From the NCBI GenBank assembly GCA_964614795.1, contig CAZTME010000002.1, positions 1 to 25,763 on the forward strand: DNA of 25,763 nt, read 5' to 3'. Source of the DNA: an uncultured Pseudomonadales bacterium. Its GTDB lineage: Bacteria > Patescibacteriota > Microgenomatia > UBA1400 > PJMF01. How positions within the stretch are numbered: the stretch's first letter is position 1; each line of letters opens with the position of its first letter. The notes under the pieces are model-generated. The model was not told the DNA's origin. It made no database searches and saw nothing but the letters and a program-made list of their open reading frames with translations. This document shows positions 1-22,810 of this stretch, piece by piece. Both the position numbers and the translations under genes were made by a program.

Positions 1-2306
1 ATAACAGCATTCTAGAATCGGTGCCCGTTTCAATTCCTCTTTTAAATTCTGGTCAAATCACTATTCAGGGTCAAGTATTACCCCAACAAGAAGATTTGTC
101 TCTCAAGCTTTATTCATCTCATACAAGTGCTAACCAAGATACGATAATTACTTACACTTTGGAATATGAAAACTTATCTTTAAGTAGTATCCCAATTAGA
201 ATCGAAGTGGATTGGAATACTCCTCATGACGATAATCATCACGTGAGTAATTTATTTGATTATGTAGTTGGATCAGCTCAAAAAGGATTCAACAACACAA
301 TACCGACTATTTCTCTTCTAGAAAGAAAAATTGTTTGGGACATTCCCCTTTTGCCTGCAAAAAAAGGCAAACAATTAGTTTCATTTCAGCTAAAAACCAA
401 AACTATTCCTCTAGACAGACCTTTGAAGTATTGGGTTAAAGCTCAACTTACCGCTCCTATTTCACTGCCAGAGGTAGTGCAAATGGGAGAATATCGCTTT
501 CTTGAAAATATGAATGAAGCTGAAGATTCTCAAGCTCAACAATTATCAAACAATACTACCACTGAACAAAGTTATGAGAGTGATAATTCTCAAACTACCC
601 TCCAATTGATCAATGACTCAAAATTAAGCATCTCGAGTGTAAATTTTCAGCAAATTGGCGTTAACACCGCAAAATTATTAATAGAAACCTCAATGCCAAG
701 CTCATTGCTTATTGAGTATGGCAAATCACCCAAGACTTTAGCAAATCAAGTGAGAAGTGAGGAATTAAAAACTCAACATTTACTCACCCTAACTCAGTTA
801 GAGCCTGGACAAAAATATTATTTTCATATTCTCGCATCTGCAATTGCTCAACCCCGAAATTATCCAATTTTATCCGACCTTTTTAGTTTTCAATCTTCGG
901 CCACTAATGACCAACCTTCGATTTTGATGGATGAAGTAGTTTTTTCTCCGATCGATTCTCCGCTCAAATTAGAGGCTAAACCTGGGGAACGTCCTTCCAT
1001 AGTTTTGGCTGAACAACTCAATGGGAGTTTGTCACTTTCGGTAGAAAATGCCACCTATGTCAATGCTGTAGATGTGATTATCATTTCTCAACTTAATAGA
1101 ACCCGCCATGAATTATCCATAGCTATGACCGAAGTTCGTCCCGGAGAATTTGTAGCCAAACTTCCTTCTTTACCCAAAGGAGATTATTTGGTATCCGCTT
1201 CTGTGTCGGATCTCTTGGGCAGTTTTGTTTCAAGCGAATTATTAAGATTAGCCATTTCACCAGCCTTAAAAGTTATTAGTTCCGGAGAAAAAAAAGCCAT
1301 TGAATTTGCACAATTGACTTTTTTTCGAGTTCATCCCAGGTTAAATACAATGCAGTTAATTCCGGCCGGTTCATTCATAGCTCAAAATCCCGTTTTTACA
1401 GATTCAACAGGAAAATTACCACTATCACTTCCAATAGGTTCATATAAAATTTTGGCGTCCGCTCCCGGTTATGAGGATACTGAAATCGGTTTTGTTCTAG
1501 GGGCAGAAACAAATTTCCCCACTATTGTGATGAAAGAAAAACACAACTCAGCCCTTCTGGCAAGAATACTCAACATACCGCATTCACTTCAATTCATAGC
1601 CCTTTCATCTACTCAACCAATAAAAGACCTTAGATACTCACAAAGAATTTATGAACTGGCTGTGACCAGTAATGTAATACTATTTACATTTTTAAGCTCG
1701 TTTGCTTTGGCTGCAAAACTACAAATTTCCGTTTGGCAAATTCCGTCATATATTATTCTAGGTCTTCGCAAACATTTATTTCCATCCAATAACAAAAATC
1801 GTATTATTACCGGCAGGATTTTTGACGCCGTTGATCAACAACCTATTCCTAAAGCTCAAATTTTCTTGCAGACAGATAATCCCACAAAAACAAAGAAAAT
1901 CTTAAGCGACAAGCAAGGCTATTTTTTTGCAACGACTTTAAATCATTCAACCATTCATTTATTGGTTAAAAGTGACGGTTATTCGCAAGTTGAGAAAAAA
2001 TTACTTCCAGCCGATCATGGTAAAACTCTCTACATCGGTCTACACTCTCTGGACAATCCAACCAGACAAGGGTTGCGAGACTCAATCCTAATAATTTTTT
2101 CGAGTTTTTTTGGCATGTTATTTGAAATTATTCTGTTAATTAGTATTGTTATTCAATTGATGTCCGTTGGCTACGGTCATCCGATTCTCAAGTATTTGCT
2201 AGATGTAGTTTTAATTATGAATGTTATTGCTTGGCTAATTTTTCAATATCGAGCTTGGAAAAGCTTTCATTCACCAATCATTACTTCTGCAAATTATCAT
2301 TCATAA
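1..2306 (+). CDS. Large membrane-anchored surface protein (DUF11-like N-terminal domain, FN3/purple-acid-phosphatase-N-like domain, two carboxypeptidase-regulatory-like domains, C-terminal TM helices); 5'-truncated by the window edge
   Basis: The track starts at GTG 21, but the frame is open to the window edge (aac agc att cta gaa tcg gtg). DUF11-like: 'DLSLKLYSS..IITYTLEYEN'. FN3-like: 'SSLLIEYGKSP..HLLTLTQLEPGQKYYF'. CarboxypepD_reg-like: 'ITGRIFDAVDQQPIPKAQIFL..SDKQGYF'. Hydrophobic helices near the C-terminus; TAA at 2304-2306. Confidence 0.8.
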   Translation, partial: NSILESVPVSIPLLNSGQITIQGQVLPQQEDLSLKLYSSHTSANQDTIITYTLEYENLSLSSIPIRIEVDWNTPHDDNHHVSNLFDYVVGSAQKGFNNTIPTISLLERKIVWDIPLLPAKKGKQLVSFQLKTKTIPLDRPLKYWVKAQLTAPISLPEVVQMGEYRFLENMNEAEDSQAQQLSNNTTTEQSYESDNSQTTLQLINDSKLSISSVNFQQIGVNTAKLLIETSMPSSLLIEYGKSPKTLANQVRSEELKTQHLLTLTQLEPGQKYYFHILASAIAQPRNYPILSDLFSFQSSATNDQPSILMDEVVFSPIDSPLKLEAKPGERPSIVLAEQLNGSLSLSVENATYVNAVDVIIISQLNRTRHELSIAMTEVRPGEFVAKLPSLPKGDYLVSASVSDLLGSFVSSELLRLAISPALKVISSGEKKAIEFAQLTFFRVHPRLNTMQLIPAGSFIAQNPVFTDSTGKLPLSLPIGSYKILASAPGYEDTEIGFVLGAETNFPTIVMKEKHNSALLARILNIPHSLQFIALSSTQPIKDLRYSQRIYELAVTSNVILFTFLSSFALAAKLQISVWQIPSYIILGLRKHLFPSNNKNRIITGRIFDAVDQQPIPKAQIFLQTDNPTKTKKILSDKQGYFFATTLNHSTIHLLVKSDGYSQVEKKLLPADHGKTLYIGLHSLDNPTRQGLRDSILIIFSSFFGMLFEIILLISIVIQLMSVGYGHPILKYLLDVVLIMNVIAWLIFQYRAWKSFHSPIITSANYHS

Positions 2307-2376
2307 ATATAAAGAATCATCGTGTTGATATTGAAAATATGAGCTTCCGCTTGATCCAGATGGAAATTCTTTAAAT

Positions 2377-2823
2377 CTAATTTTGCGATGATTGAATCAA
2401 TTCATTTGACTTAGTGGGGAGCGAACCGAAATGAATTATTTTTTTTGAGTCTGGACGATACAAAAGCATGTTTCCCGCTATGGGAAAAACTATCACCAAA
2501 TCGTTTTGTTTGGCATTTGCGAAAAATGGATTGTCTTTAATTAATTGTTCGTCATTAACTACACCTATGACCGGTTGTTCTCTTGGCAGCTCAATCACTT
2601 GACTTATTTCTCTTAAAATTAATTCATATTCACTCGCATCCTGTTTGTTGAAAAAATTAAATATCAAAATAGAAATTAAAACAAAAAACAAAGAAATGAT
2701 GATTAAAACTTTTTTGCTCTTAAAGCGATTATCACTAAAATTAAAGGAGCGATTTTTTTCCGGCTCAATAACAATTTTTCTGGGTTGAAAAGTATGATTG
2801 GAATTGGCTGACGACAAATTCAT
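2377..2823 (-). CDS. Small single-pass membrane protein of a family I recall as conserved in CPR bacteria; function unknown
   Basis: 148 aa. Basic N-terminus, TM 'VLIIISLFFVLISILIFNFF', then 'IELPREQPVIGVVND..NPFFANAKQNDLVIVF..LLYRPDSKKII'. Confidence 0.7.
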   Translation of the reverse strand: MNLSSANSNHTFQPRKIVIEPEKNRSFNFSDNRFKSKKVLIIISLFFVLISILIFNFFNKQDASEYELILREISQVIELPREQPVIGVVNDEQLIKDNPFFANAKQNDLVIVFPIAGNMLLYRPDSKKIIHFGSLPTKSNELIQSSQN

Positions 2824-2845
2824 ATGTTTTTCATCTTAGCATTTT

Positions 2846-3517
2846 TCATTTGGGTATGGAAAACACCAATTGATTATTATCATAGGCAGGATATTTTGAA
2901 AGAACACCTCTTTGAACAATTTTTTTCGTGTGAGTATTGGGCTCATAAGTTTCAGCCTGCCACTGTCCTTGAGAATTTTTTCGAGCAAAGACCAAAAGAT
3001 TATCATCATTAATATCCGGATTGATGCCACTTTCCACTAAAGCTCGCATTGGTGAACTCACCCTATACCAAATCTGCCATTCATTTTCACCCCACTCCTG
3101 CCATACCACTACTCCCACACTATTAACTTTAGGGTTGCTAATAAATTTTCCAGTTCTGACTTCCACGTTTGTTGAAGAAGGCCATTCTTTAAGCATTAAT
3201 GACTGATTACCGGAACTATCTTGTTCAATCCAAACAATATAGTTTCCTCTACTATATGTGGCTAGATACTTCTTTTCAGGTAGTGACAAATCGTGCTTAA
3301 CCCCATCTACAATAACATATAAACGAGATGAGCCATCTTCAGTGATTTCAAGTTTTGCTTCAAGATTATATTGTTTGGATTGTTCTGGCAAGGATTGACG
3401 ATTTATGACCCACCCAAAAAATGGAATGAAAACTATTAAAACAAATATAAAATACCTGAAGAATTTCGATTGAATTCCTAATTGCAAATAATGATTGAGA
3501 AAATTTAAGTAAAACAT
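2846..3517 (-). CDS. Membrane-anchored protein with TolB-like partial beta-propeller repeats
   Basis: 223 aa. N-terminal TM 'YFIFVLIVFIPFFGWVI'. Repeated blade-like motifs 'GNYIVWIE', 'NPKVNSVGVVVWQE..WQIWY', 'NPDINDDNLLVFAR..WQ', 'YPAYDNNQLVF'. Exact start uncertain. Confidence 0.65.
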   Translation of the reverse strand: MFYLNFLNHYLQLGIQSKFFRYFIFVLIVFIPFFGWVINRQSLPEQSKQYNLEAKLEITEDGSSRLYVIVDGVKHDLSLPEKKYLATYSRGNYIVWIEQDSSGNQSLMLKEWPSSTNVEVRTGKFISNPKVNSVGVVVWQEWGENEWQIWYRVSSPMRALVESGINPDINDDNLLVFARKNSQGQWQAETYEPNTHTKKIVQRGVLSKYPAYDNNQLVFSIPK

Positions 3518-3520
3518 AAA

Positions 3521-6500
3521 TCAATCTACTCGGGTCATTTCGGTTTTTAATTCATTGGTGAAAATTGTGCCGTGACGTAATTCTTGCTCAGTTGCTTGAC
3601 GAGTAGTCAAGGTTGGACAAACTGCATAATTACTCAACAATTGATTATTGTGATCTACAACACGAAAGGAATAGGTGCTGGCTGGCGCTGCCCCATTGTG
3701 CTCCAAGTGAAAATCATATTCCATAGTTTCTCCCTGCAAAGCGGAAAAGGGGTTAACAGCGCTGGGCAGCGCCTTCACATAAACACCCGCCACGTCGCTC
3801 AAAGATAAAACCAATGTGTCGATATTGGCGCCATTATTTATCGAAGAAGAAGCAAATCGCCAAACACTTCCAGCTCCGGACGCTCCCACCTCAGTCCAAG
3901 TTCCGGCAGAACAACTACCGTCATTACCGGCTTTATATTGTAATCTTAATTGAGCCTCTCCAACAGGCAAATTATCTCCTCCCACCGTCAAGCCAAGACG
4001 CAATCGGAGTTGTTGAGCAAACAAAGGTGGAGTATTGGTAGCCGGCAGTAGAGAAATGGCTTGATTTTCAGCCAAATTGACACTTCCCCAAGGATCATTG
4101 ACATTAATTAAAGTTGAATTTGTATACCACCGATAATTTGATTGTGTTAAATTCCATTGTCCACCGCCAGAACTTGCCATCACAGCTTGCGCATATGAAA
4201 TTATTGTGTTTACACCCTGAAGAGCGAAACAATAATTTTCCCCAGCTAAAGCATTGACGGTTGGTTTAATTGAAAATTCCAACTCGGTAAATTGAGTTGA
4301 GTTTAAACCAATTAATGAACTAGTGTTTCCCGCATCTTTGACTTGTCCAGCAACAAAATTTACATTTTCATCGGTTAAACCATTGGCCACGTTGGTTGTT
4401 GACTCACCGTCAACTAAATAGGTTGAATCGATTATTTGCCAATGACCGGAAGCATCTGTGGGTACCGGTACGTATGTACCAGCGGAACAATTATTAGTTT
4501 GAGCAAATTGTAATTGAAAGCTGGAAATGATGGGAAGTTCATTTGCGATACTCTCATTGGATACTTGCAGTCTTAACCTATATTGATTTGAACTAGAAGC
4601 ATCCACTAGTGGATAGTCTTCATTACTAATCCAAGTTGCAGATACTCCCTGAGCCTGTTGAGATGTAATTTCACTCAAAAATCCTCCAACTCCAGGATTG
4701 GAGTGATTATTGTATTCGGTTTGGATCCAATCAATACTTAATTGTCCGTTAATAACTCGAACCTCATCTATCACTCCATCAAAAGTTTCATTAAAGCCAT
4801 TTTCTCCAAAAGTTAAGGAGCCGGTGTTAACGGTTGGATCACTTGTAGTGGTTGGCTCATTAATGATTAAGCTTCCATTAACATAACCCCTATTTACGCC
4901 ATTGGTATCATCATGATCATAAACTAAATATGAAAAAGTGTTGCTAGCTACCGGAGAAGTAGTGGAGGTTGATTCTTGAAATCCCCCACCATCATGATAA
5001 CCCACAGTCATTTCATCATTGTCAAGAATTCCCAACCAATAATTAGGATTGGGAGTACCTTTTAGCACCACTCCATCATAACCGGGATTAGAAATTGAGT
5101 TTGGTCTAACCCAAACTTGAATAGCAAAATTACTTGGAATATCCAGCGAGTTTGAATCCGGCACAACTACTTCATCACCTCTGCTAAATGAAGATGCTCC
5201 ACCTAAAATACCACTCGCGTTACCTTGAGTGGTAACGTTAACGCTACTTGAATGGTTGGCATTAGCGGTTGAATCATAGTGTTGACCAGAAGTTTCCGAA
5301 AAATGCCATACTCCTCTGTACATACTCGACCAAACATTGGTGGGATTTTCTTGGTTGGCGGCTAATGGATTACCGTAATAAATATATATTTCCGTGTTAA
5401 TTGAAGTGGACAAAGTCGGTATTCTAATCCAAGCTGTAAGCGCACCCGTCGATGCAACATAGCGTTCAATTTCATGATCCAATTGCACATTATTAATATC
5501 GGTGAATAAAATATCATTGCCCGAAGCTTGAGCCACATAACCTCCATTGCCTGTGTCTCTTAAATCTGAATCAGTAACTTGAAAGGCAAAAGGATAATTT
5601 ATTAAATCACCTGATCCAATCACTTGATTTGCGTCAATGGTAACTTTTTTTCGATATAACCAACTTGAGTTATACCAATTACTTCCTCCAACTCCTTCAA
5701 TGCCATCATCATTGCGCCAGCGATAATGCACTTGTTGAAGATCTGGCGCGCCCAAATTAATTTCCTGCCATTGCAGATCAAATCTATATACCAGATTAGA
5801 ATCACCCGCACTTTCCTGAAACAGAGCTATGCCTTCACCAGGCGCCAAAATTAACTCATCGCCAAAAACGATTTCATTCTCATATTGACCAACAACTTGA
5901 TTGACCGCGCCCGGAGCAATGACTGTGAGAATTTTTGCCTGACTACCCTGAGGATAGGCGACTGTTATGCCATTGCTTCTTACTTCAGCTACACTATTTT
6001 CAGATTGTGTATTTTTTTTGACAGCATCTAAACTTGAAACTAAACTGCCGTTACTTGCGCTGGAGATTTTTTGCAGGGTGACTGGAAAATAACTAGCCAC
6101 TGGAAGCGTAGTATTATATTTATTTACTCTGATGCCTAACCTTCTCACCTGAAATTCTTTTCCAGAATCTACCGGATTAAATAAAGAAGCATAAACATAT
6201 CCGCTCGTTGTTGAACCGGTAGTTCTAGGTGTGGTTAACAAAAATTCATTGGTGGCGGTTGGAGTTTGCGCCAGAGCTACTTCAGTCCATTCTATGAGCA
6301 TTTTTACCCGAAAATTAGCGTTTCCCGCAACCGGCTGATACAAACCTATTCCCTCACCTGGGGCTAATATGATTTTTTCATCAATATTAAATTCCAATTC
6401 TCTATATCCACTTACTGAAGGTGCAATCGCACTTCCCACTGCTCCAGGAGTTTCCAAATTAAGAAGCAATGAGTTGACATCACCCAGATATGTTGCAGTT

Positions 6501-8536
6501 GAACCTGTTCTTCTCACTTCCGTCGTGGAGTTGTTTGCTCCCGTGTGTTTTTTTGGAATATTAGCTTGAGCAATTTGTGTGCCACCAGAATGACCACTAA
6601 TTCTTCGCAACTGCATAGGAATATAGACAGCCCCTCCGATCGCATCAATTCTTAGACTAATTTTTGAAATGGCAGTTACTCTACCCGAACCACTCGGGTT
6701 AAAAAAAGTGGCGTAATTGTAATTTGCATTAGTACTACCGTTAATTACTCCAATATCCATTAAATAATTGTCGGATGCCGAAGGAGTGGAGGCAACTTCT
6801 TGCCATTCAAAAAAAATCTTGACGAGAGCATCTACATCGGTTGTTAGTACATCACTATAAAAACCAATGCCTTCACCGGGCTGGAGAATAATCGCTTCGC
6901 TATCACTTAAAACAATCTCTCGCTGACCAACAATCTGGGCGACAGCACCCGGTCCATTGACACTTAATAAAGTTGAGTCTGCAGTACCTAAATAAGTGGC
7001 AGAAATTGCGGTCGCACAGGTGGCTCCACACCAACGCAATTCAACTTGCGAAGCATTGGAAGAAGTATTTTTGGACATGATATCTGAATTATTAATCAGT
7101 AAACCATTGCCGGAAGCAGAAATTCGACGAAAACTATATCTAGGATACACAGATGAAGTATCTGCATCAATTCTAATACCCAATCTTCTCACTTTAACTG
7201 TTCTTCCGGATCCAACAGGATTAAATAATGTATAGTGAGAAGTGTTGGCTGCAACGGCAGCCTCAATTCTTGGTGATGCCCAAAAATATTCATTTTGAGC
7301 CTGAGGAGAACTTGCAACTGGCACTTCCCGCCATTCAACAATCATACGAGTTAGTTGATCTATATCTCCTGTAGCTTCTGATACGAGAGCTAAACCCTCA
7401 CCGGGCTGTAAAACCAGTTTTTCATGATCACTGTGAAAATTTATTTCTTGCCAACTATGTGGTTGTCCCGCCACCGCACAAGGTGTAACGTGACCAATGC
7501 GAGCGTCTGCAGTTCCAACCAAAGTGGCAGTAACACCCGTGTGCCGAAACTCCATGGCAGAATCTGTGGAAGCAGTATGTTTTTTTGGAATAGCACTCGA
7601 TGCAATTTGTGTCCCACCGGTGGCTGTTGTAGTTCTACGCAAGACGATGTTGTTTGTATAAACGGCCGTAGTATCGCAAGTTTCCGCTCCGAACCACATT
7701 CTTTTCACGATGGCCACGGTATTGGAGCCGGAAGGATTAAAAAATGAGTTGTAAACATAATTAATTCCCGCCACATTTTCTATTCTGGGAAAAGCAAACA
7801 AATACTCATTTTCGGCTGTTGGTGAAGAGGTAACTTCCTCCCATTCGAGATAAATCCTAATTCTTTGATCAGTATCACCAGCCGCCTCTTGATAAACGGC
7901 GATGCCTTCACCCGGATTTAAAATAATGTTTTCATCGTTATCACCAAATTTTAAATCTCGAACGCTATGAAATTGTCCGGCGGCTCCAGCCATAGTCTGA
8001 CTAATAATTCTGGAATTAGTGATACCGGAGAAGGTGACTGTAGGACCGGTTGATCTGACTTGCATTTCCGGATCAATTGATTGAGTATTTTTTTTTGGAA
8101 TGTTACCCGCCACAATCTGTGATCCACCGGTACTACTTGAAATTCTTCTGACAGTTAAATTAACATAGTTTGCGCCAGCAACCGCATCAGATCTAACAGC
8201 AATTTTTTTTATTTTTACTGTTGTTTGAGCTGTTAAAGGTTGAAAAAATGATGCATAAACATAATTTGCTGTAGCTACTCCATTTATTGGTCCGACTTCA
8301 ATAAAATAATCATTTTCAGCCGGATCTTGAGCGGCTTTAACTTGATTTGATTTCTTCATTACGTCTACAATGTTTTCATTTTTGGAAGCTTTGTAAAGCA
8401 AGTCAACAATGTTATTTTCTTTTCGATGATCCAACCATAAATTTATTAGAGACAACCAATGCATAGAATTACCAAGCATTAGCATTACCAACAACAACAC
8501 CAGTGTTTTTCTAATTAATGTGAGCCACATAATCAT
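3521..8536 (-). CDS. Giant secreted/surface protein (1671 aa): five tandem ~170-aa beta-rich repeats, DUF2341 + LamG-like (concanavalin A-like) module, two related Cys-paired beta domains, C-terminal LRHG motif
   Basis: Uninterrupted 5016-nt ORF with an N-terminal hydrophobic segment. Repeats share 'F.NP..S', 'IPKK.T', 'IIL.PGEG' and 'W.E'. DUF2341-like: 'WYNSSWLYRKKVTID..DILFTD..LDHEIE..WIRIPTLS..IYIYYGN'. LamG-like: 'VWHFSE..VWVRP..GYVNG..FDGVIDEVRV'. Confidence 0.85.
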   Translation of the reverse strand: MIMWLTLIRKTLVLLLVMLMLGNSMHWLSLINLWLDHRKENNIVDLLYKASKNENIVDVMKKSNQVKAAQDPAENDYFIEVGPINGVATANYVYASFFQPLTAQTTVKIKKIAVRSDAVAGANYVNLTVRRISSSTGGSQIVAGNIPKKNTQSIDPEMQVRSTGPTVTFSGITNSRIISQTMAGAAGQFHSVRDLKFGDNDENIILNPGEGIAVYQEAAGDTDQRIRIYLEWEEVTSSPTAENEYLFAFPRIENVAGINYVYNSFFNPSGSNTVAIVKRMWFGAETCDTTAVYTNNIVLRRTTTATGGTQIASSAIPKKHTASTDSAMEFRHTGVTATLVGTADARIGHVTPCAVAGQPHSWQEINFHSDHEKLVLQPGEGLALVSEATGDIDQLTRMIVEWREVPVASSPQAQNEYFWASPRIEAAVAANTSHYTLFNPVGSGRTVKVRRLGIRIDADTSSVYPRYSFRRISASGNGLLINNSDIMSKNTSSNASQVELRWCGATCATAISATYLGTADSTLLSVNGPGAVAQIVGQREIVLSDSEAIILQPGEGIGFYSDVLTTDVDALVKIFFEWQEVASTPSASDNYLMDIGVINGSTNANYNYATFFNPSGSGRVTAISKISLRIDAIGGAVYIPMQLRRISGHSGGTQIAQANIPKKHTGANNSTTEVRRTGSTATYLGDVNSLLLNLETPGAVGSAIAPSVSGYRELEFNIDEKIILAPGEGIGLYQPVAGNANFRVKMLIEWTEVALAQTPTATNEFLLTTPRTTGSTTSGYVYASLFNPVDSGKEFQVRRLGIRVNKYNTTLPVASYFPVTLQKISSASNGSLVSSLDAVKKNTQSENSVAEVRSNGITVAYPQGSQAKILTVIAPGAVNQVVGQYENEIVFGDELILAPGEGIALFQESAGDSNLVYRFDLQWQEINLGAPDLQQVHYRWRNDDGIEGVGGSNWYNSSWLYRKKVTIDANQVIGSGDLINYPFAFQVTDSDLRDTGNGGYVAQASGNDILFTDINNVQLDHEIERYVASTGALTAWIRIPTLSTSINTEIYIYYGNPLAANQENPTNVWSSMYRGVWHFSETSGQHYDSTANANHSSSVNVTTQGNASGILGGASSFSRGDEVVVPDSNSLDIPSNFAIQVWVRPNSISNPGYDGVVLKGTPNPNYWLGILDNDEMTVGYHDGGGFQESTSTTSPVASNTFSYLVYDHDDTNGVNRGYVNGSLIINEPTTTSDPTVNTGSLTFGENGFNETFDGVIDEVRVINGQLSIDWIQTEYNNHSNPGVGGFLSEITSQQAQGVSATWISNEDYPLVDASSSNQYRLRLQVSNESIANELPIISSFQLQFAQTNNCSAGTYVPVPTDASGHWQIIDSTYLVDGESTTNVANGLTDENVNFVAGQVKDAGNTSSLIGLNSTQFTELEFSIKPTVNALAGENYCFALQGVNTIISYAQAVMASSGGGQWNLTQSNYRWYTNSTLINVNDPWGSVNLAENQAISLLPATNTPPLFAQQLRLRLGLTVGGDNLPVGEAQLRLQYKAGNDGSCSAGTWTEVGASGAGSVWRFASSSINNGANIDTLVLSLSDVAGVYVKALPSAVNPFSALQGETMEYDFHLEHNGAAPASTYSFRVVDHNNQLLSNYAVCPTLTTRQATEQELRHGTIFTNELKTEMTRVD
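5759..8314 (-). repeat. Five degenerate in-frame protein-level tandem repeats (168-174 aa each) within the giant ORF
   Basis: Repeat starts at 8314, 7810, 7294, 6772 and 6250 (spacings 504, 516, 522, 522 nt). The 'PGEG' codon motif (cc[tc]tcacc) recurs near 7905, 7396, 6870, 6352 and 5833. Confidence 0.9.
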
Positions 8537-9557
8537 TAATTTCTTTAGCTATTTCAGAAAATATTATTGAAACATCCCTTTCTTCCAAACTATTATTTGG
8601 CCTAGCTTCAATCATAGTGGTTAATAAATATGGCCTGTTTGAGTAATATATAATGCCACTGTCAGCCCATACACGATCGTCAGCTCTGATTCCGGTTTTA
8701 TGTACAAATTTAATCGATTCGTCAATACCTTCGGCTAAATATTCTCTTGGAGAATGTTCTAAGTAACTTAAAAATAATTGTGAATATTCGGGTAACAAAA
8801 AGGTGGCATTATACAGTGATCGGAAAAAAGTAGTGTAGCGCTTGGCGGTAATGCGGTTATCATACTCATCTGAATCGGGATTTTTTTTCAAACTATCAAT
8901 AATATCGTCAAAACCAAGATGTACAAATACTTCTTCCAACTCCTTGTCGGTAATATTTCGCAACATCATAAAATGTGCGGTATTATCCGAATCCACCAAA
9001 CTTGCTTTGAGCACTTCCTCAATTGTTTTTGTTGTGCCTGTTGGTAATTGATGCCAATCACCGAAACTTGAGTCTTTGTCTTGATCCATGACTACCAGCT
9101 CATTACTCAACTGCCACTCACCACGCTCAATTTTTTTCATCACGGCCATAGCGACAGGAATTTTGATTAAGCTGGCCGGCCACATTTGAACATCCGTATT
9201 AACACTTATATTTGCACCTGTTGGCAAATATTCAAAATAAATTGATATATTAAATTTTTCGTGATTCTCATATTTATTTTTCAAAGATTCTCTTAAAGGC
9301 TGAAAATTTACAATCATGTCTTGGTTATTAATCAGGGATACTCCCGGATTTAATAAATTTAATCCATCATCACCAGCATATTTACCAATTCGATCAAAAT
9401 TATTTTGTCTTATAAAATACAAATTCACCAGAAGAGAAATGATAAAAATAAAAACAAGCAAAAAAATAGAAATTTTTATCACAATAAATCTTTTTTCTCC
9501 CGGCAAGTGAGTTCGAACTTGATTTTTTTGACCTTGTAAGTATTTATTTACTGACAT
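8511..9557 (-). CDS. Membrane-anchored serine hydrolase of the class A beta-lactamase-like / PBP fold (Beta-lactamase2-like)
   Basis: SxxK 'SLIK' (9173-9162), SDN (8990-8982) and KTG (8699-8691), plus N-terminal TM 'ISIFLLVFIFIISLLVNLYFI'. Its 3' end overlaps the giant gene start by 26 nt. Confidence 0.88.
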   Translation of the reverse strand: MSVNKYLQGQKNQVRTHLPGEKRFIVIKISIFLLVFIFIISLLVNLYFIRQNNFDRIGKYAGDDGLNLLNPGVSLINNQDMIVNFQPLRESLKNKYENHEKFNISIYFEYLPTGANISVNTDVQMWPASLIKIPVAMAVMKKIERGEWQLSNELVVMDQDKDSSFGDWHQLPTGTTKTIEEVLKASLVDSDNTAHFMMLRNITDKELEEVFVHLGFDDIIDSLKKNPDSDEYDNRITAKRYTTFFRSLYNATFLLPEYSQLFLSYLEHSPREYLAEGIDESIKFVHKTGIRADDRVWADSGIIYYSNRPYLLTTMIEARPNNSLEERDVSIIFSEIAKEINDYVAHIN

Positions 9558-9562
9558 AAATT

Positions 9563-11296
9563 TTAGTTATTAGATAAATAATGCAAATTAATTTCACCCA
9601 CTTGTACGGAATCTCCACCAGCGTCTGCCCTGAGCTGAATACGAAAAGTAACATAGGCGCCGGCCGTCCAGGTTCCACCACTTATTCCAATTGTGGACTC
9701 CGTCCAATTTGTACCTGCAACCTGGGATCCACCCGCATTATTTAAGACTCCGGCAGTGTCAAAAACATAAACAGTTACCGCATTATTCGTGTTATCTGTT
9801 CTTTTGCCATAGATTTGTATAGGATTGTTCGCCCATCCGGAAAAATTATCCGGTACTCGCCACCTTACCCAAATTTCATAATCTTGAGGCGTAGCTTGAG
9901 AAGTTGTCCAACTATAGTAGTTGTGCAAATCTCCAGCAGTGCTACACACTGTGGTATTGGTGGCGGGAATGCCCCCAACTCCACTAGAAGCCGCACAAAA
10001 ATCTGAGGTGAGAGTACCGGAATTATCACTGCCATCTCCGGTAAGAGTGGCTCCGGGATATTCAGGCACAATAGCCACTCGGCGTGTTGGTCTTGCCGTC
10101 CCGGCATAGCTTGGCCCACTAGATTCGCTGAATGTAAATGTATTGCTTCCTTCGCCAAGAATGACCGCGTCACTGGCATTGATGCTCAAATTACCACTGG
10201 CGGTGATGTTGTTTGAATTAACCGCTAATGCCCCGCTACCCAACGTTAAACCTCCACTCGTGACCGAAATTCCACCACCCGCAACAGAAATTCCACCGGA
10301 ATTAACCCCAAGCGCATTTGCTAAATTCAATCCTCCCGATGTTGTAAAATCCGTACCAGCATTACCAATATTTGTAATAATAAAATTTGACATGTCAATA
10401 CCGGTGGTAAATCCACCACCGGCATTGGAAAACAGAATTCCAGTTGTAACAGGACTGCTTAAATTACTGTTTCTGACTTCTATGATCGTGGATGTAGCAT
10501 CTCCCAAAACTGCCAGTTCCGCTTGAGGATTTGTTGTACCTATACCCACGTTACCGGAACCGCCTGGAAGAATTGCCAAATGTTCGTTTGCTGGCGTGGT
10601 AATATCGGAAGTGGCACCGGCAAAAACCAAGCCCGTACTTCCAATTGTTTTATTTAAAAATGTCTCAGTCTCTGCCAACGTCGCCAAAGTTCCCGTTGTT
10701 GGCAAAGTTAAATTCGTAATTCCACTGCTATTTAAGGTCACATTGTTATCACCGCTAAACTCAATAATTGCGTCTGGAATACTTAGCGTTCCAGTTGTAT
10801 CGATCACGGTTAAACCCGCTACCCTTTCAGCATTAAATGCATATGGAACGGCTGTGAAACGCACTCTGGGTGACATTTCTCCATCATTGTTGAAGTTAAT
10901 TCCCAGAAATAACAAATCAGAATTAAAATCTATTGATTCTGGAATCGAATTGACAGCGCCCAAACTAACCTGAAAAATTCCATCCTGAACATAAACTTGA
11001 TTACTGGTTGTTCTCACTTCTGTCCAAAGAGGCGTGCCATTTTGGGAAACATCATAAAGAGAAAAAGTCACGTCATAATTACCATTTGCAATATTCATGC
11101 CAGTATTAGTGACAATTTTTCCCTGAAAATTAATTTGTCGATTTATGCCAGTCGCGGCATGAACAGAACTATTTATTCCAATCAAGAAGCCGTGATTGAA
11201 CAAAAAAAGATACAAAAATAGAAAAAGGTATAGTAACCCCTTCCCCATAAATGAAAATAGTAGCCAAGATAAACTTGGGTTGATCTCACTGCGCAT
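9563..11296 (-). CDS. Secreted tail-fibre-like surface protein
   Basis: Signal peptide ending 'SSVHA|A'. N-terminal 'INFQGK..YDVTFSLY..LWTE..V.DGIFQVSLG..FLGI..EMSPRVRFTAVPYAFNAE' domain, a 'GNVGIGTTNP' fibre motif, Gly-rich 7-residue repeats, and a C-terminal globular domain 'PEYPGATL..HNYYSW..DYEIWVRWRVP'. No S74 chaperone visible. Confidence 0.75.
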   Translation of the reverse strand: MRSEINPSLSWLLFSFMGKGLLYLFLFLYLFLFNHGFLIGINSSVHAATGINRQINFQGKIVTNTGMNIANGNYDVTFSLYDVSQNGTPLWTEVRTTSNQVYVQDGIFQVSLGAVNSIPESIDFNSDLLFLGINFNNDGEMSPRVRFTAVPYAFNAERVAGLTVIDTTGTLSIPDAIIEFSGDNNVTLNSSGITNLTLPTTGTLATLAETETFLNKTIGSTGLVFAGATSDITTPANEHLAILPGGSGNVGIGTTNPQAELAVLGDATSTIIEVRNSNLSSPVTTGILFSNAGGGFTTGIDMSNFIITNIGNAGTDFTTSGGLNLANALGVNSGGISVAGGGISVTSGGLTLGSGALAVNSNNITASGNLSINASDAVILGEGSNTFTFSESSGPSYAGTARPTRRVAIVPEYPGATLTGDGSDNSGTLTSDFCAASSGVGGIPATNTTVCSTAGDLHNYYSWTTSQATPQDYEIWVRWRVPDNFSGWANNPIQIYGKRTDNTNNAVTVYVFDTAGVLNNAGGSQVAGTNWTESTIGISGGTWTAGAYVTFRIQLRADAGGDSVQVGEINLHYLSNN

Positions 11297-11367
11297 GCGG
11301 TTACTACCAGTTTAACCTGGTATACCTCGAGTGAACAAGTGAAACATAAAGTATCTTATTGATCTTT

Positions 11368-11383
11368 AGTATAACTAAGTATA
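11368..11383 (-). promoter_or_regulatory. Possible -10 elements upstream of the fibre-like gene
   Basis: Two TATACT hexamers on the minus strand, 10 nt apart (11368-11373 and 11378-11383), in a 156-nt intergenic gap. No good -35. Confidence 0.25.
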
Positions 11384-11452
11384 TCCTCTACTGTTCTAAG
11401 TGGTACTAATTTGTCTTAGATGAGACGTGATAGTAATAGAAGAAATGAAAAA

Positions 11453-12547
11453 TTAATACTCTGCCACTGCTAATAATAAAAAATTGGCAACATAATCATT
11501 AGCTGCGGGTGTTAGAAAATCAGTTCTGGCTTTTACTGAAAGAGATGCGACACCGTTATTGATTTTATTTTGAGAAGAATGCAATATGACTTGAGCGTTA
11601 TTATTTAAACTGCCAACTACATTACCTCCTCCATTAAATGGTGCAGCAGCGGCAATCGGTCCACCGGATGATTGATTTATAGAATGAACTTGAATGCCCA
11701 CTCCTTCATTCATTGAGTCCAAATTTCCAGCAACCAGTGGTATGGAGTGACCGGTGGTGACACTTTGCAATCCCGGATCAAGAGAAACCCCTAGAATTTT
11801 CATGCCATCTTTGGCATTAGTTTCCATGCTTATCCAAATTTTTTCGGTGCTGGTTATTGTATTTCCGGGTGAAACTTCTCCCAATGAAAGCACAAAAGGC
11901 GGTAATGAATTGTCATTATTTTGACTGACATTAAAGTTAAAATTCACTTTTAAAGGAGATGTCTGTGCAGATACTGATTCACTCCATGGTCCTTGAGTAA
12001 AAATTCCGTGCCTGGCCATCACGCGAAGCTGATAGCTGGTATTTGGCAATAAACCGACAACATATTGACCAGAATTCGCCCCCCATTCAGCATGTGTTTG
12101 CCAGTTATCTTCACTCAATGAAATTGATGTTGTACCATCACTTTTTACAAAAGAAGTAGTAACAAAATTATCAGTGGAAATTGAAAGAGCAAATTGCGCA
12201 TCTGTTGGAAAATCAGAATTATCAAGAATGAAAAACAATTTGTTATAGTCATCATCCACATTTTGCCAAATAGGAGGATTTGGCTTTGCTGACATTTGCA
12301 CATTCATTAATCCAGGTAAAAGAGAAAATAATGAAGAGCTAGAGTTTGATGCAGTCATCTCTCCTGAAAGAGCATGCAAACCGTATGCCGAACTGGAAGC
12401 ATTATTTAAACCTCCACTACCAAAAGCATGAGATTCAAGGGTGTAGGTATTACTGGTAGGCATAATCAATAAAAATAAACTTAACATTGAAAAGTTTTGA
12501 AGTCTTGAGAAAAATGAGAAAGTATTTTTAAAGCAATTCATAAGCAT
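11453..12547 (-). CDS. Secreted protein with FN3-like middle domain and C-terminal WxL/Csu-like domain (paralog of the C-terminal domain of 15269-16288)
   Basis: N-terminal 'SNTYTLESHAFGSGG..SSSAYGL' module; FN3-like 'VVGLLPNTSYQLRVMARHG'; C-terminal 'LGEVSPG..TNAKDG..LQS..GHSIP..TPAANDYVANFLLLAVAEY'. True start may be a downstream Met. Confidence 0.7.
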   Translation of the reverse strand: MLMNCFKNTFSFFSRLQNFSMLSLFLLIMPTSNTYTLESHAFGSGGLNNASSSAYGLHALSGEMTASNSSSSLFSLLPGLMNVQMSAKPNPPIWQNVDDDYNKLFFILDNSDFPTDAQFALSISTDNFVTTSFVKSDGTTSISLSEDNWQTHAEWGANSGQYVVGLLPNTSYQLRVMARHGIFTQGPWSESVSAQTSPLKVNFNFNVSQNNDNSLPPFVLSLGEVSPGNTITSTEKIWISMETNAKDGMKILGVSLDPGLQSVTTGHSIPLVAGNLDSMNEGVGIQVHSINQSSGGPIAAAAPFNGGGNVVGSLNNNAQVILHSSQNKINNGVASLSVKARTDFLTPAANDYVANFLLLAVAEY

Positions 12548-13166
12548 CTATAAAAGACCTCAGTAAGCTATAACTATCGGTTGTTACTCTGGGTAATTGA
12601 TATAGTCCGATGACAATTAGTTTATCATTTTTCCGAGCAAAGAACGCAAGTTCTTGTTCCGCGGCGATAAAAAGATATTCATCAAATCTATTGGGATCAG
12701 AAAATAATACATTGGCGCTTTTATAAAGTTGAGGATTATTTAATCGATAGTTTACGTCTGGTACTTCCTTCAATGAAAGAGATGTTAAGGAAAGTTTTCT
12801 AGTCACTATTGTCAATGAGGCTCTGGGAATATCCAAACTGCCCAAAAACACACAGTGATTATCATTTTCATTAATTCTAGCCGATCTAAATTTTAATTGT
12901 TTCTTAACTTTAAAACATGAGGTATTGGGTTCAAGTATTGTGAGTCTTGATTCTCCATGGAGTATTTCTTCAGAATTAATCCATTGCAAATCATGATGAG
13001 TAGTAACAAATTCTTTAACTCTGGGTGATAATTCCTTTGCATCATTACCTTTAACTTGACTAGTTGACCAAATTCGCAAATTTAACGATAAAAAGAATAT
13101 TGAAAAAATAAAAATGATTCCGAAAATCGACCAATGCCAGTATCTGGAAAGAAATTTATTTAGCAT
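12528..13166 (-). CDS. Hypothetical single-pass membrane protein
   Basis: 212 aa, TM 'WSIFGIIFIFSIFFLSL', one Cys pair. Overlaps both neighbours (20 and 11 nt), consistent with an operon gene. Confidence 0.6.
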   Translation of the reverse strand: MLNKFLSRYWHWSIFGIIFIFSIFFLSLNLRIWSTSQVKGNDAKELSPRVKEFVTTHHDLQWINSEEILHGESRLTILEPNTSCFKVKKQLKFRSARINENDNHCVFLGSLDIPRASLTIVTRKLSLTSLSLKEVPDVNYRLNNPQLYKSANVLFSDPNRFDEYLFIAAEQELAFFARKNDKLIVIGLYQLPRVTTDSYSLLRSFIDAYELL

Positions 13167-14073
13167 TAATTTTTTTTCTTAACTGATACTTAAATGTGAG
13201 AAATAAAAATATAATAGTTAATAACACCAAAAAAAACCAAAAAGAAAAATAAGTGCTCCAATTTTTCCAAGAGAATGCTGTTTCGTCTGTACCAGCTGAA
13301 CCTTTCAAAGATATTTGAAAAATCGAAACTGGAAATGTCCAATTCTGATGAGAAATTGGCACTTCAATAATCTTGCTCGATCCGGAAAAAACTTTTTGTG
13401 AATCCATATTTATAATTCCGGTTGCAATGATTCGACCAAAAATATCCGTAATTTCTATCTTTCCTCTAGGGGTAATAAAAGAATTACCATTATTTGCAAA
13501 TTCTAATTGCAGTTTATCAGCTTTGAAAAACATAATCGGCCAAGACCAACCTTTCACTTTATTCAATGAAAGAGATACTTTTTCATCAACTTTATAATTA
13601 ATAAAAATAATGGAAATTAAACCCTGGGTGAGTGAAGAATTGTTTTCCGATTCATTCAATTGATTTTCATAAGCCAAAATTGCAACTGTATTTCCACCCG
13701 CTAGCAAATGATTATTGGCTGTAATTTCTATTTCCACTTCACTACTTGAATTCCCGGCAATTTCTAATTCTGGCGTACTAATTTCGATGTATTTCGGAAT
13801 ATTTGTAGTTTCTAAAACTCCGGACTGATCAAAAGAAATGAGAGGCAATTGTTTGATTGGGTCATAAAAAACCGGAAGTAATTTCAGTGAAATTCCATAT
13901 TCAAAGGGATTTTCTATTTTCAATTTTGCCACCGCCACTTCATTAAAATTATTAAGTTGTATGTCTTGATAAGCCGGAGAAATACTTAAAGCTTTTAAAG
14001 CGGAAGGATGAAGAAAAAAACTCATCAACAATACAAGAAGCAGAACTCTGGAAAACCAATGTGCGATACTCAT
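13156..14073 (-). CDS. DUF916-like (WxL-interacting / PapD-like Ig) protein with C-terminal TM anchor
   Basis: Signal peptide 'ALKA|LSISP'; 'YIEISTPELEIAG..EVEIEI'; 'LEFANNGNSFITPRGKIEITDIFG'; C-terminal TM followed by a basic tail 'RKKINAK'. Confidence 0.7.
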   Translation of the reverse strand: MSIAHWFSRVLLLVLLMSFFLHPSALKALSISPAYQDIQLNNFNEVAVAKLKIENPFEYGISLKLLPVFYDPIKQLPLISFDQSGVLETTNIPKYIEISTPELEIAGNSSSEVEIEITANNHLLAGGNTVAILAYENQLNESENNSSLTQGLISIIFINYKVDEKVSLSLNKVKGWSWPIMFFKADKLQLEFANNGNSFITPRGKIEITDIFGRIIATGIINMDSQKVFSGSSKIIEVPISHQNWTFPVSIFQISLKGSAGTDETAFSWKNWSTYFSFWFFLVLLTIIFLFLTFKYQLRKKINAK

Positions 14074-14079
14074 AACAAA

Positions 14080-15246
14080 TTAGTTTTTCAAGCGCTTTTT
14101 ACGCAGAAGGAAAAATGGAGAAATAATCGCCCAAACAAGCAAACCTATAACTAGAATCGCTCCAGCAATAATTCTCCATGGAATAACCCAAAAACTCAAA
14201 GTCGCTTCCACCGGCACGTCTCTTTCACCATTATCATACACAAAAAGCAGGTTGGCAGTGTATTCGCCAAATCTAAAATGATTAGCAGTGGACCAATCCC
14301 AACTCAATCTTCTTTGCGGTTTGCCGTTCTCATCTGTGTAGACTTCATAATTGGGAAAACCTTCCAACCAACTCAATTCATATTTTCTGGAAGATTGAGG
14401 CAAAACCAATCCTCCGCCAGGATTAAGATTAAGAATTGCTACATCTTTTTGATCTTGACTATCAATGAAAATTGTACCCTTTGGTTGAGTGGCCACATTG
14501 CCAGAATTTTTAATCGTCACTTCAAAAGTGGCTGGTAAAAATTCATAAATGCGCTGAGTTGAAATAAAAGACTCCAAACTCAACTCTTTTACAGCTAAAG
14601 GAGAATTAACCATTGCAATCACCAAAACAGCTGGAATACCGGAGATGACCGCCGTATCATTACTATTTATAACTTCTTCTTGTCTTTTAACTAAAATCGC
14701 ATACAAATAGCCCAAAGCCGCGTCTGCTGGAGGATTAAAATCAAAAGGGACAGAAACCCATTGACCTGGCTCGGCAGTAAATTTTGGCTGAGAAAATTTT
14801 ATCCATTCTGCATAGTAATCTTCAGAGGTAAAATCTTCAATTCTCGGACGAGATCCGGTTTCATCTGCTCTGAATTTTGCGAGAGATAATTCCAAATATT
14901 CTGTCTGAGAACCGTTATTAAGCACCTTGATTTCAGAGGAAATTGGCACACCCGGATCTGTTTCCAAATTTAAAGAAATTGGTGAAACAGTTAAATTAAT
15001 CGGAGATGAATTTTTTACCTCTTCTTGAATTTCGGAAGAACTTGTGGAAATTTCCGACTGCAAAATCTCGCTTTTTGTTTGCGCATTAACCATCAATTCA
15101 ATTGGTGGAAAGAAAAAAACAAAAAGGAGTGTTAAAATCAACACTCCTTTTTGAAAAGTACTCATTTTTGTACAAATATTTAATTTTCTTGAACAATTAA
15201 GTTTATGTTTGTTGCATGAAAAATGAGATATTATTGTTTTTTTCAT
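14080..15246 (-). CDS. DUF916-like (WxL-interacting / PapD-like Ig) protein with C-terminal TM anchor
   Basis: 'LTVSPISLNL..PG....EIKVLNNG', 'WIKF..EPGQWVSVPFDFNPPADAALG..YAIL', 'IKNSGNVATQPKGTIFI', 'VLPQSSRKY', 'FGEYTANL', then 'FWVIPW' + TM + 'RKKRLKN'. Confidence 0.8.
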   Translation of the reverse strand: MKKTIISHFSCNKHKLNCSRKLNICTKMSTFQKGVLILTLLFVFFFPPIELMVNAQTKSEILQSEISTSSSEIQEEVKNSSPINLTVSPISLNLETDPGVPISSEIKVLNNGSQTEYLELSLAKFRADETGSRPRIEDFTSEDYYAEWIKFSQPKFTAEPGQWVSVPFDFNPPADAALGYLYAILVKRQEEVINSNDTAVISGIPAVLVIAMVNSPLAVKELSLESFISTQRIYEFLPATFEVTIKNSGNVATQPKGTIFIDSQDQKDVAILNLNPGGGLVLPQSSRKYELSWLEGFPNYEVYTDENGKPQRRLSWDWSTANHFRFGEYTANLLFVYDNGERDVPVEATLSFWVIPWRIIAGAILVIGLLVWAIISPFFLLRKKRLKN

Positions 15247-15268
15247 GCGATAATATTTTCAATATTAC

Positions 15269-16288
15269 TTAAAAATTGCCGGCAGCTACAATGGTTAATG
15301 TATCTGTGTAATCAGTGGCGGCGGGTGTCAAACCGCTAATCGTCACACGTGGAATCAATCTTACCACCTGATTGGCAGAAGCTCCGTTTGAAGAAGCGAA
15401 TGGCGAAAAACTGGTGTTTGACAAATCTCCTCCGGCGCTTGTGCTTCCACCATCATATTCGGCGTTAATACTTAAGGTTCCTCCCGTACCAGCTGCTTGA
15501 AGATCGGCATCGACTACGTAGCCGGCAACACCGGGAGTTAATGTTGAAGGAGCACTATTCACCGCTCCGGTGTTAGGAATAGAACCACCGGAAGCTACAG
15601 AGTTTAATGCTTTATTGGCGCTTCTTAGCCATGCCACCCATCCATTTCCTGCATTTGTGGAAATTTCCACATCCACACCGGATCCTGAAGTAACTGCACT
15701 CGAACTTAAAGTTCCTAGTGATTGAGAATTTCCGCTTAACGAAAGTGAAAAAGTGGCGGGAACAGTGGCGGAAACAGTATCATCGGCAATAATTGAAGTG
15801 GCGTACTGTCCAGAATCTACTTCAACATCCCCGGAGGTGGTAACAGCAATCTGTCCAACTTGATCGCTGCCCGCCGAGCCATTCGTTAAAGTAGAAGTGC
15901 CGGAAAAATTAAAACAATGCAAATCGGTTGTTGAGATATTGGAGATTGGAAAAGTCACAGTTTGCCCAGAAACTGCCGTAGCGGTTGCAACGCCGGGCAT
16001 CGCAGTCGCTCCAGCAGGCAAGTTACTGGTGGTAACAGTCCAATTACCAGCTGTACCGTTCACTGTAAAACCAGATGGAAAAGTGACTAAAACTTTGGCA
16101 TCGGTAGAACCAGTTGTGGCTAATGCCAAACAAACCGTACCACCGGTGTTAGCGGAAGCACTCATTCTGTCCAATCGTAAGGAAGCTTGCGATAACTGAG
16201 CAGCTTGCGCTTGAACCGGTGACAAGGCAATCAATCCCAGAGTGGCAACTCCACTGACTACATATGAAAAAATGCGAGAGTTGGGCAT
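15269..16288 (-). CDS. Secreted two-domain protein with C-terminal WxL/Csu-like domain; candidate major structural subunit of the cluster
   Basis: SPase I signal ending 'VQAQA|A'; Thr/Gly/Ser/Ala-rich; N-terminal domain with a Cys pair; C-terminal 'LGTLSS..STNAGNGW..SIP..TPAATDYTDTLTIVAAGNF'. No TM or LPxTG anchor. Confidence 0.75.
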   Translation of the reverse strand: MPNSRIFSYVVSGVATLGLIALSPVQAQAAQLSQASLRLDRMSASANTGGTVCLALATTGSTDAKVLVTFPSGFTVNGTAGNWTVTTSNLPAGATAMPGVATATAVSGQTVTFPISNISTTDLHCFNFSGTSTLTNGSAGSDQVGQIAVTTSGDVEVDSGQYATSIIADDTVSATVPATFSLSLSGNSQSLGTLSSSAVTSGSGVDVEISTNAGNGWVAWLRSANKALNSVASGGSIPNTGAVNSAPSTLTPGVAGYVVDADLQAAGTGGTLSINAEYDGGSTSAGGDLSNTSFSPFASSNGASANQVVRLIPRVTISGLTPAATDYTDTLTIVAAGNF

Positions 16289-16401
16289 ATTGTTAAACTC
16301 TTTCTATGGTTATGTGTAATAAATGCACACAACCTAATATCAACTGTAACGTAGTACAGCAGATTGCAATGGTTGTAGTCAATAGTACAAAAGCGTTCTA
16401 T

Positions 16402-17277: not shown

Positions 17278-17547
17278 AAATATTTTATGATTAGGCGACT
17301 TAGCTAAAGAAAAAATTACTGATTAATACTATCTTTAAGAAAAGTCTCAATACTTTTTCAAATTAAATTAATGCAACACTATATAGACTTGTCACACAAT
17401 GTCATAAGATTACTTTGACAAATTAATATCTGAGCTTTTGTCCGACAAATCTTTTACTTTTATATGTTAACAGATAATTGCAAGTCAATTTTTATTAATC
17501 CAAAATTCATTATAGTTTTCTCAGAAGAAAAGGGGGAAATTACAAAA

Positions 17548-22328: not shown

Positions 22329-22810
22329 GGATTAATCATTTCTTCTATTTCGACTACCCCATATCTATTAAAATTTAATTTTACAGAACGCATATTCGAA
22401 AAAATAATAATTGAAGATTGAGTAGCTTGGTATTGATCAACAAATCCAGAGTTTTGAGAGAAAATAATTTGATCATTAGGCAAGTTGATATTTTCTATTG
22501 TAATGCCATTTTCAAGAATAATTTCTTCATTTTGCACATCTTCATCTTGATATTCTAAACCAGAAAATAAAGTATAAGAATTATTTTTAAAATATATTCC
22601 GTGAGCTTGATTGTCAGAGTTACCAATTTGACGATTAATTGCTTTTTGTTGCTGTGAGGCTAAATCAGATATTAATAATTCTAAAGATGTGTTGAACTGA
22701 GTACGATTAAGACTGTTAAAACCAATCACTGTTGCCATGCTAGCCAAAGTCAAAAAAATCCCCATTGATAGAATTATTTCAATGAATGAGTAACCGGATA
22801 CTTTTTTCAT
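22325..22810 (-). CDS. Minor pilin, FimT/FimU/GspH-like
   Basis: 'MKKVSG|YSFIEIILSMGIFLTLA', 'HGIYF..NSYTLF', 'IIFSQNSG', 'FNRYG'. Confidence 0.8.
   Translation of the reverse strand: MKKVSGYSFIEIILSMGIFLTLASMATVIGFNSLNRTQFNTSLELLISDLASQQQKAINRQIGNSDNQAHGIYFKNNSYTLFSGLEYQDEDVQNEEIILENGITIENINLPNDQIIFSQNSGFVDQYQATQSSIIIFSNMRSVKLNFNRYGVVEIEEMINP

Follow-up and report, generated by a model that had tools for sequence, protein, structure and literature searches.

Five fused jelly-roll domains as a candidate host-contact head on a pilin-less giant protein of a Patescibacteria-type bacterium

How do ultra-small bacteria of the Candidate Phyla Radiation (CPR) recognize and hold their hosts? The answer is largely unknown, and the question is posed in concrete form by one gene on a 25,763-nt stretch of DNA from an uncultured bacterium (GenBank assembly GCA_964614795.1, contig CAZTME010000002.1, positions 1–25,763; named as Pseudomonadales and placed by GTDB in Patescibacteriota, Microgenomatia, UBA1400, PJMF01). 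We refer to this whole stretch as the window. On its minus strand, positions 3521–8536 form a single unbroken open reading frame of 1,671 codons, whose product, labeled P0001 (P, L and G numbers denote relatives, loci and genomes), carries five tandem copies of an unrecognized domain. We propose, with a probability of roughly 0.6, that this array is the portable, conserved host-contact head of an unnamed CPR (Patescibacteria-type) protein family, which makes the family a concrete candidate for that contact. The source genome comprises 1.08 Mb on 116 contigs and is 90% complete. The window is AT-rich (GC content of 27–44% in 1-kb windows). These properties agree with an organism of the CPR/Patescibacteria type, and named relatives of its proteins come from Kerfeldbacteria, Moranbacteria, Parcubacteria, Gracilibacteria, and Woesebacteria.

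The array spans amino acids 72–925 of P0001 and accounts for 51% of the protein. Its five repeats comprise 168 (R1; amino acids 72–239, window positions 7820–8323), 172 (R2; 240–411, 7304–7819), 174 (R3; 412–585, 6782–7303), 174 (R4; 586–759, 6260–6781), and 166 amino acids (R5; 760–925, 5762–6259), all on the minus strand. Pairwise identities lie between 34.6 and 42.5%, with alignment scores 31–55 standard deviations above those of shuffled sequences. A first-pass annotation, made from the sequence alone, had described five such repeats filling half of a giant protein and sharing one motif skeleton. Its delimitation holds, with the last repeat, put there at ~164 amino acids, measuring 166, and the skeleton is present (FNP..SG, RRIS, IPKK.T, E.R.TG, L.PGEG, W.E). 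Across 685 repeats, the positions kept in at least 85% are F27, N28, P29, S32, G67, K78, R90, G137-E138-G139, W160, and E162. A DNA tandem-repeat scan detected no DNA-level tandem repeat at the array and no recent duplication, and we therefore consider the duplication of the repeats to be old.

The same annotation had called the domain unrecognized, and our searches agree. The five repeats have no match in Pfam (E ≤ 10) or NCBIfam, and PDB sequences yielded none either when searched with single repeats or with profiles of 5 and 115 sequences; ten single-domain relatives likewise lack a Pfam match. In these three collections, there is consequently no confident full-length match to a characterized family. 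Among phage protein families, phrog_5335 is matched partially by R1 alone of the five repeats (1.4e-4) and weakly by 5 of 115 family members (best 1.4e-5). The suggested resemblance to DUF6143 (PF19640) did not survive. That family also consists of small all-beta proteins, but a search of the genome with its hidden Markov model (HMM; 27-bit threshold, E ≤ 0.01) gave no match, and neither the repeats nor their single-domain relatives match any Pfam family. The trace of DUF6143 that we encountered is a feature-space lead alone (score 0.86, rank 72).

An AlphaFold2 model of R4, built from a 115-sequence alignment, is an all-beta jelly-roll with a mean predicted local distance difference test score (pLDDT) of 93.8 and a predicted template modeling score (pTM) of 0.88. 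The closest solved folds are jelly-rolls at Z-scores of 6–8, namely the trimeric cement protein of phage KHP40 (Z 8.0–8.3), satellite-virus and geminivirus coats, Ena3A, collagen VIII NC1, C1q, Cbln1, and BclA heads. Coat proteins of satellite tobacco necrosis virus, geminiviruses, and nanoviruses reach Z 6–7.4, a likeness of fold class only. Foldseek against the PDB gave weak jelly-roll matches for a single repeat (E ≥ 1.4e-3; template modeling score, TM, below 0.45). Because Z-scores of 6–8 belong to the common jelly-roll background, we read fold class, not kinship, from solved structures. In a model of the whole array, all five repeats share this one fold; the models thus show each ~170-amino-acid repeat as a predicted jelly-roll, as the first-pass annotation had supposed.

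Kinship emerges from phages instead. Among 1.84 billion representative proteins, a profile search returned 366 relatives of the repeat domain, which fall into two groups: large proteins with five copies, and many proteins of 155–215 amino acids with one copy at the very C-terminus. Using tblastn, we found single-domain homologs in Streptomyces phages at 26–34% identity, among them FlowerPower gp42, whose gene occupies the late region, with the capsid gene on one side and the holin on the other. Gp42 and the homolog in phage Coruscant (HUN41_00113) carry a homologous domain with the motifs FNP.GSG, PGEG, and W.E. In BFVD, uncharacterized tailed-phage proteins match the repeat fold with TM up to 0.80, and matches in the AlphaFold database (TM 0.6–0.73) fall on the C-termini of proteins that bear the names baseplate-J-like, DUF1983, or phage tail. 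The Atlas clusters nearest to the repeat domain are 100% viral. Outside the arrays, the domain is a single, C-terminally placed domain of uncharacterized tailed-phage and mobile-element proteins, and the phage jelly-roll resemblance noted from the sequence alone has real relatives behind it. The phage proteins differ from the array in having one copy, always C-terminal, and no signal peptide, whereas the array repeats form a clade of their own. One of several single-domain forms branching next to this clade (P0048) is encoded on a 14.6-kb Joint Genome Institute contig (L021) that bears mostly orphan genes, alongside an integrase of phage type and a MazE-like gene, and looks like a virus or mobile element.

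Within the large proteins, the array is a fixed unit. All 141 proteins recovered with an intact array, nearly all of them complete, contain exactly five copies, beginning 17–99 residues from the N-terminus and ending near residue 870–960. Moreover, each repeat corresponds to one position: R1 of P0001 has a mean identity of 53.3% to R1 of 136 other proteins versus 35.7–42.5% to other positions, and the same-position values for R2 to R5 are 61.5, 49.4, 52.8, and 43.2% (other positions taken together, 32–45%), so that R2 is the most conserved position and R5 the least. Individual positions also carry features of their own. R1 has an 'A-type' long first strand (IGPINGxxxANYxYA), and R3 bears an insert, RWCGATCATAIS, and a conserved cysteine at column 92. 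R2 holds a family-wide pair of cysteines (profile columns 48 and 112, present in 85% and 93% of proteins), which, judging from this conservation, probably form a disulfide. A quick maximum-likelihood tree, in which a careful search is incomplete and R3 and R4 are partly mixed, clusters the repeats by position, with the R5 copies in one group (support 92), and unites all array repeats in a clade of their own (support 99) from which the single-domain forms are excluded. A single origin of the five copies predates the radiation of the family, and each position has kept its own identity. An earlier proposal of a block duplication (A-B-C-A'-C') is contradicted by both identities and tree: R3 and R5 are among the weakest pairs in P0001 (36.4%) and the weakest family-wide (mean 37.2%), R1 and R4 are the best pair (42.5%) but barely above R1 and R2 (42.3%), and the quick tree pairs R2 with R3 and R4 with R5.

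The model of the whole array (amino acids 64–931, 868 residues) reached a pLDDT of 92.0 and a pTM of 0.90, and the latter value implies a defined, rigid packing between the domains. By this prediction, the five domains form a single rigid body instead of a string of beads. For this body, neither Foldseek nor a fold search of the whole array against the PDB returned a solved counterpart; what Foldseek gave were, as for the single repeat, weak jelly-roll matches. R2 and R3 together overlay two neighboring modules of single-chain C1q and Cbln1 trimers (~220 residues, Z 7.8–8.5), an overlay that is loose (root-mean-square deviation ~6 Å) and in the background range of Z, and that hints at a side-by-side packing of the modeled repeats. 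Conservation runs evenly along every repeat (0.55–0.86) with no hypervariable loop, and the array is 50–57% identical across CPR classes. Fixed copy number, positional orthology, the cysteine pair confined to R2, and the predicted rigidity all disfavor equivalent repeat units, and the first-pass idea of an avidity array can be set aside for this reason.

Where does such a body sit? In its commonest form, the family is represented by proteins of ~1,090 amino acids that consist of a leader, the array, and a ~162-amino-acid tail. This tail stands at the extreme C-terminus in 114 of the 141 array proteins, including longer ones, which hold extra domains (e.g., RCC1 repeats) between array and tail. 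The two tails that we tested (P0191 and P0243) pass the NCBIfam model NF058581 (CPR_Pam_pilin_C) with 66.7 and 79.4 bits (cut-off 55). In four other genomes (L009, L017, L018, G211), pilin-like and chaperone-like genes come after the array gene. An upstream partner with overlapping stop and start codons is a beta-lactamase-fold gene at some loci (L007/L008, L016, G211) and a membrane protein of 460–541 amino acids at others. The most complete version of the operon (L015, G211:C1:98000-117900) lies on one strand and comprises a 790-amino-acid 'up' membrane protein, a beta-lactamase-fold gene, a 1,094-amino-acid array protein, two pilin-like genes, a chaperone-like gene, and two more; it joins the two context types. 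The first-pass annotation overlooked this context: most relatives carry the array as the N-terminal head of a Pam-type pilus subunit, and in the window it has been recombined onto another module.

This other module is what makes P0001 an atypical family member, with five copies and positional orthology and without a Pam-pilin-type tail. Neither the tail HMM nor the NCBIfam models NF058581 and NF058579 found a pilin domain in P0001, and hhalign assigned one a probability of 0.04. Its C-terminal 746 amino acids (926–1671; window positions 3524–5761, minus strand) contain beta-sandwich 'YRWRNDDG' domains, a DUF2341 domain (5267–5521; Pfam 1.2e-11), and a LamG domain (4721–5179; Laminin_G_3, 1.4e-18). 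The same module recurs over its whole length in P0273 and in a Woesebacteria protein, P0277 (43–47% identity), and over about half of it in P0284. In these three proteins, the N-terminal half is unrelated, and the array is absent from 119 of 119 homologs of the C-terminal half. Since the module recurs with unrelated N-terminal halves and without the array, P0001 is a domain-shuffled chimera in which a module from another family of giant surface proteins stands in for the pilin domain. The array therefore occurs on at least two types of C-terminal module, which makes it a portable N-terminal module. At the end of P0001 (3524–3600, minus strand), the sequence ...CPTLTT(K/R)..Q(E/L)(L/M)RHG..F....F..AD is kept at the extreme end of P0273, P0277, and P0284 as well; the conserved QELRHG..F tail is a candidate sorting or anchoring signal.

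The array is rare. Of 400 further genomes drawn from the phylum, 1 contained it in a domain-profile search, and a query with the long protein against 200 phylum genomes gave no array match. The Pam pilin domain, by comparison, occurs in 77 of 301 genomes (own genome counted; 26 above the curated cut-off), in many cases as the last domain of a very large protein. A common pilus system thus carries many payloads, of which the five-jelly-roll head is a rare one. Rarity also renders unlikely an S-layer role or the lattice-forming role that had been the other suggestion made at first sight. That an array so rare is 50–57% identical across CPR classes would fit horizontal spread. On a smaller scale, window positions 4800–6800 are found 100% identical in freshwater and sludge metagenomes and ~99% identical in soil, and ~20 runs from varied habitats hold part of them, which suggests a cosmopolitan population carrying this segment.

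From these observations, we infer contact with a partner cell, because in the relatives a pilus-type subunit carries the array as its free N-terminal end, and because the array is kin to phage tail-type C-terminal domains. After export and cleavage of the leader, the array would form the free distal end of the protein and would contact a conserved structure on the partner (host) cell, much like the C-terminal jelly-roll heads of phage tail proteins. In P0001, the LamG lectin-type module would add a second binding function. The leader (amino acids 1–71; 8324–8536, minus strand), which we read in the sequence and compared with 16 homologs, has a basic stretch, a hydrophobic segment, a conserved NIVD..Y.A..N.N(I/V)VD motif, and an A-x-A-type site (VKAA/QDP) abutting R1. 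All 17 leaders carry an AxA or (E)AA motif directly before R1, and in the short ones, this motif lies at signal-peptidase distance from the hydrophobic segment, pointing to a putative cleavage at this site. P0001 could then be held on the cell by its conserved QELRHG..F tail or, if the leader stays on, by the leader itself.

Several points weigh against a host-contact role. Strong and even conservation is odd for a host-specific adhesin and fits a structural role equally well. The pilus-tip logic of the relatives is not simply transferable to the pilin-less P0001, and the free distal end presupposes a leader cleavage that is only inferred from the leader sequences. On the phage side, phrog_5335 is annotated 'unknown function', and the Coruscant homolog lies among tRNA and miscellaneous genes, not among tail genes.

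The first of these points leads directly to the main rival, in which the array is a rigid stalk or spacer that has no ligand of its own and sets adhesive C-terminal domains (DUF2341/LamG here, RCC1 elsewhere), which are also the variable ones, at a fixed distance from the fibre or membrane. Fixed length, the packing implied by the pTM of 0.90, and conservation typical of a structural element would all suit a stalk, as would the location of the variable parts C-terminal to the array. In addition, the sole hydrophobic segment of P0001 is N-terminal, and without cleavage, the array would lie next to the membrane. However, the pilin attachment domain at the extreme C-terminus of 114 of 141 relatives, with payloads in between, places the array at the free end, and the AxA-type site is conserved directly before R1. 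The commonest form, moreover, is array and pilin domain alone, and a stalk bearing nothing makes little sense. We therefore regard the stalk as unlikely, albeit worth keeping in view.

More doubtful is a role within the bacterium's own cell, in which the array would be an oligomeric phage jelly-roll (a cement, decoration, or tail-tip protein) turned into a single chain. It would self-assemble or dock on another part of that cell, for instance the co-encoded beta-lactamase-fold enzyme or the pilus, instead of binding a host. Its best solved matches are indeed oligomeric jelly-rolls (the KHP40 trimeric cement protein, with C1q, Cbln1, and BclA heads), R2 and R3 overlay neighboring protomer-like modules, and a beta-lactamase-fold gene overlaps the start of the array gene in four distant genomes. 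Yet such Z-scores are common among unrelated jelly-rolls, the two-domain overlay is loose, and another group of loci has a different upstream partner of 460–541 amino acids. A complex prediction for the beta-lactamase-fold protein (amino acids 45–348) with R1–R4 of the array (amino acids 64–759) scored 0.00, which is evidence neither for nor against binding. Finally, although neither search returned a second protein built like P0001, it is scarcely credible that its fusion stems from misassembly or gene decay and has no biology of its own, since the frame is uninterrupted over 1,671 codons and contigs from other studies (freshwater and sludge, 100% identical; soil, ~99%) span the junction at ~5745–5760.

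Returning to the host-contact head, we also entertain a more elaborate origin, as a tentative idea that is itself rather unlikely. Here, the array would be a covalently concatenated descendant of a phage oligomeric jelly-roll. Its five non-equivalent modules would be packed alongside one another in the manner of C1q/TNF protomers, perhaps in a closed pseudo-oligomer or a 3+2 arrangement, and would form one composite recognition surface: a self-contained, horizontally mobile 'host-docking cartridge' plugged onto a Pam pilus in most cases and onto a DUF2341/LamG module here. If true, this would explain why the array is found in so few genomes and is nonetheless conserved across CPR classes like a housekeeping protein.

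The surroundings of the gene in the window resemble those of its relatives, since the usual neighbors of the family are all present on the same strand: a pilin/chaperone-type cluster, then a fibre-like gene, then a beta-lactamase-fold gene. The last of these (8511–9557, minus strand) encodes a membrane-anchored protein of the class-A beta-lactamase (penicillin-binding protein) fold (Pfam Beta-lactamase2, 1.7e-38), and its end shares 26 nt with the start of the array gene. At 50–56% identity, this arrangement of two overlapping genes recurs in the three other distant genomes named above for this partner. The cluster (11453–16288, minus strand) encodes two secreted proteins with a pilin-type C-terminal domain (15269–16288 and 11453–12547), two chaperone-like proteins (14080–15246 and 13156–14073), and a small membrane protein. 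The family tail profile matches both secreted proteins end to end (3.4e-9 and 3.1e-6), and the chaperone-like proteins have matches among the genes located after the array gene in L009, L017, L018, and G211. Between cluster and beta-lactamase-fold gene, a 577-amino-acid fibre-like protein (9563–11296, minus strand) weakly matches the N-terminal domain of the Bdellovibrio mosaic adhesive trimer family (1.5e-4).

A scan for promoters and terminators over window positions 2000–17500 gave nothing above shuffled sequences around the array gene. Within the cluster, a strong terminator-like hairpin with a 15-bp stem and a T-run (15120–15153, minus strand) lies just downstream of the pilin-like frame at 15269–16288 and ~95 nt inside the listed start of the frame at 14080–15246. 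It may be an attenuator after the gene of the major subunit; the frame at 14080–15246 would then begin farther downstream than listed. Further upstream, type IV pilin-like genes with an N_methyl motif and a gene for a 649-amino-acid LVIVD-repeat protein occupy 17604–18113, 20379–22328, and 22325–22810 (minus strand); the window therefore holds parts of two different filament systems.

What does this locus contribute? The domain and the five-copy module have no curated family in Pfam or NCBIfam and no description in the literature that we searched. As a rigid, phage-derived head of five modules, the array should be expressible and testable for ligands. Its occurrence without a pilin domain means that the head can be studied alone and that its function is independent of the pilus. 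The tension between rarity and conservation raises the question of horizontal spread, and metagenomes from the subsurface, freshwater, sludge, and soil contain the window copy in near-identical form.

How close does the array come to known systems? C1q/TNF-like heads, BclA heads, and phage cement proteins (7dou, 1wck, 5hzf, 5kca) have the same general fold (Z 6–8.5), and adjacent repeats loosely overlay adjacent protomers of single-chain C1q. They differ in showing no sequence similarity and Z-scores within the jelly-roll background, and the array consists of five covalently joined, non-identical modules instead of three identical chains.

Closer in context is the Pam pilus of CPR bacteria, which is composed of PamA/B/E pilins and a PamT tip pilin and served by the membrane-anchored chaperones PamC/D (Troman et al. 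2026 preprint, PMC13278184; NCBIfam NF058581 and, for PamT, NF058579). Most array relatives end in a Pam-pilin-C-type domain and stand beside pilin-like and chaperone-like genes, as P0001 does beside the cluster at 11453–16288. The 'tail fibre-like' protein that is consistently co-located with pam operons (PMC13278184) also has a counterpart here, at 9563–11296. On the other side, P0001 has no Pam pilin domain, and the window's own pilin-type proteins miss the NCBIfam models at E ≤ 1. The preprint states the mechanism of host contact as unresolved (PMC13278184); a text search of it for 'jelly' gave 0 occurrences, and the five-jelly-roll array is not mentioned.

A similar division of labor is known from the WxL (Elr) pilus of Enterococcus, whose tip adhesins combine a variable N-terminal payload with a C-terminal attachment domain (Sleutel et al. 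2026 preprint, 10.64898/2026.10.17.759780). In these proteins of Bacillota, as in the array family, an N-terminal effector is mounted on a C-terminal domain, there used in chaperone-guided donor-strand exchange (10.64898/2026.10.17.759780). They belong to another phylum, however, and in the array family, the N-terminal module is conserved and not the variable part; Pfam finds no WxL domain in P0001, only DUF2341 and Laminin_G_3. A modular jelly-roll adhesin head on a fibre or surface anchor is already known in kind, and what the window copy adds is that such a head is portable and occurs without a pilin domain on a lectin-bearing module.

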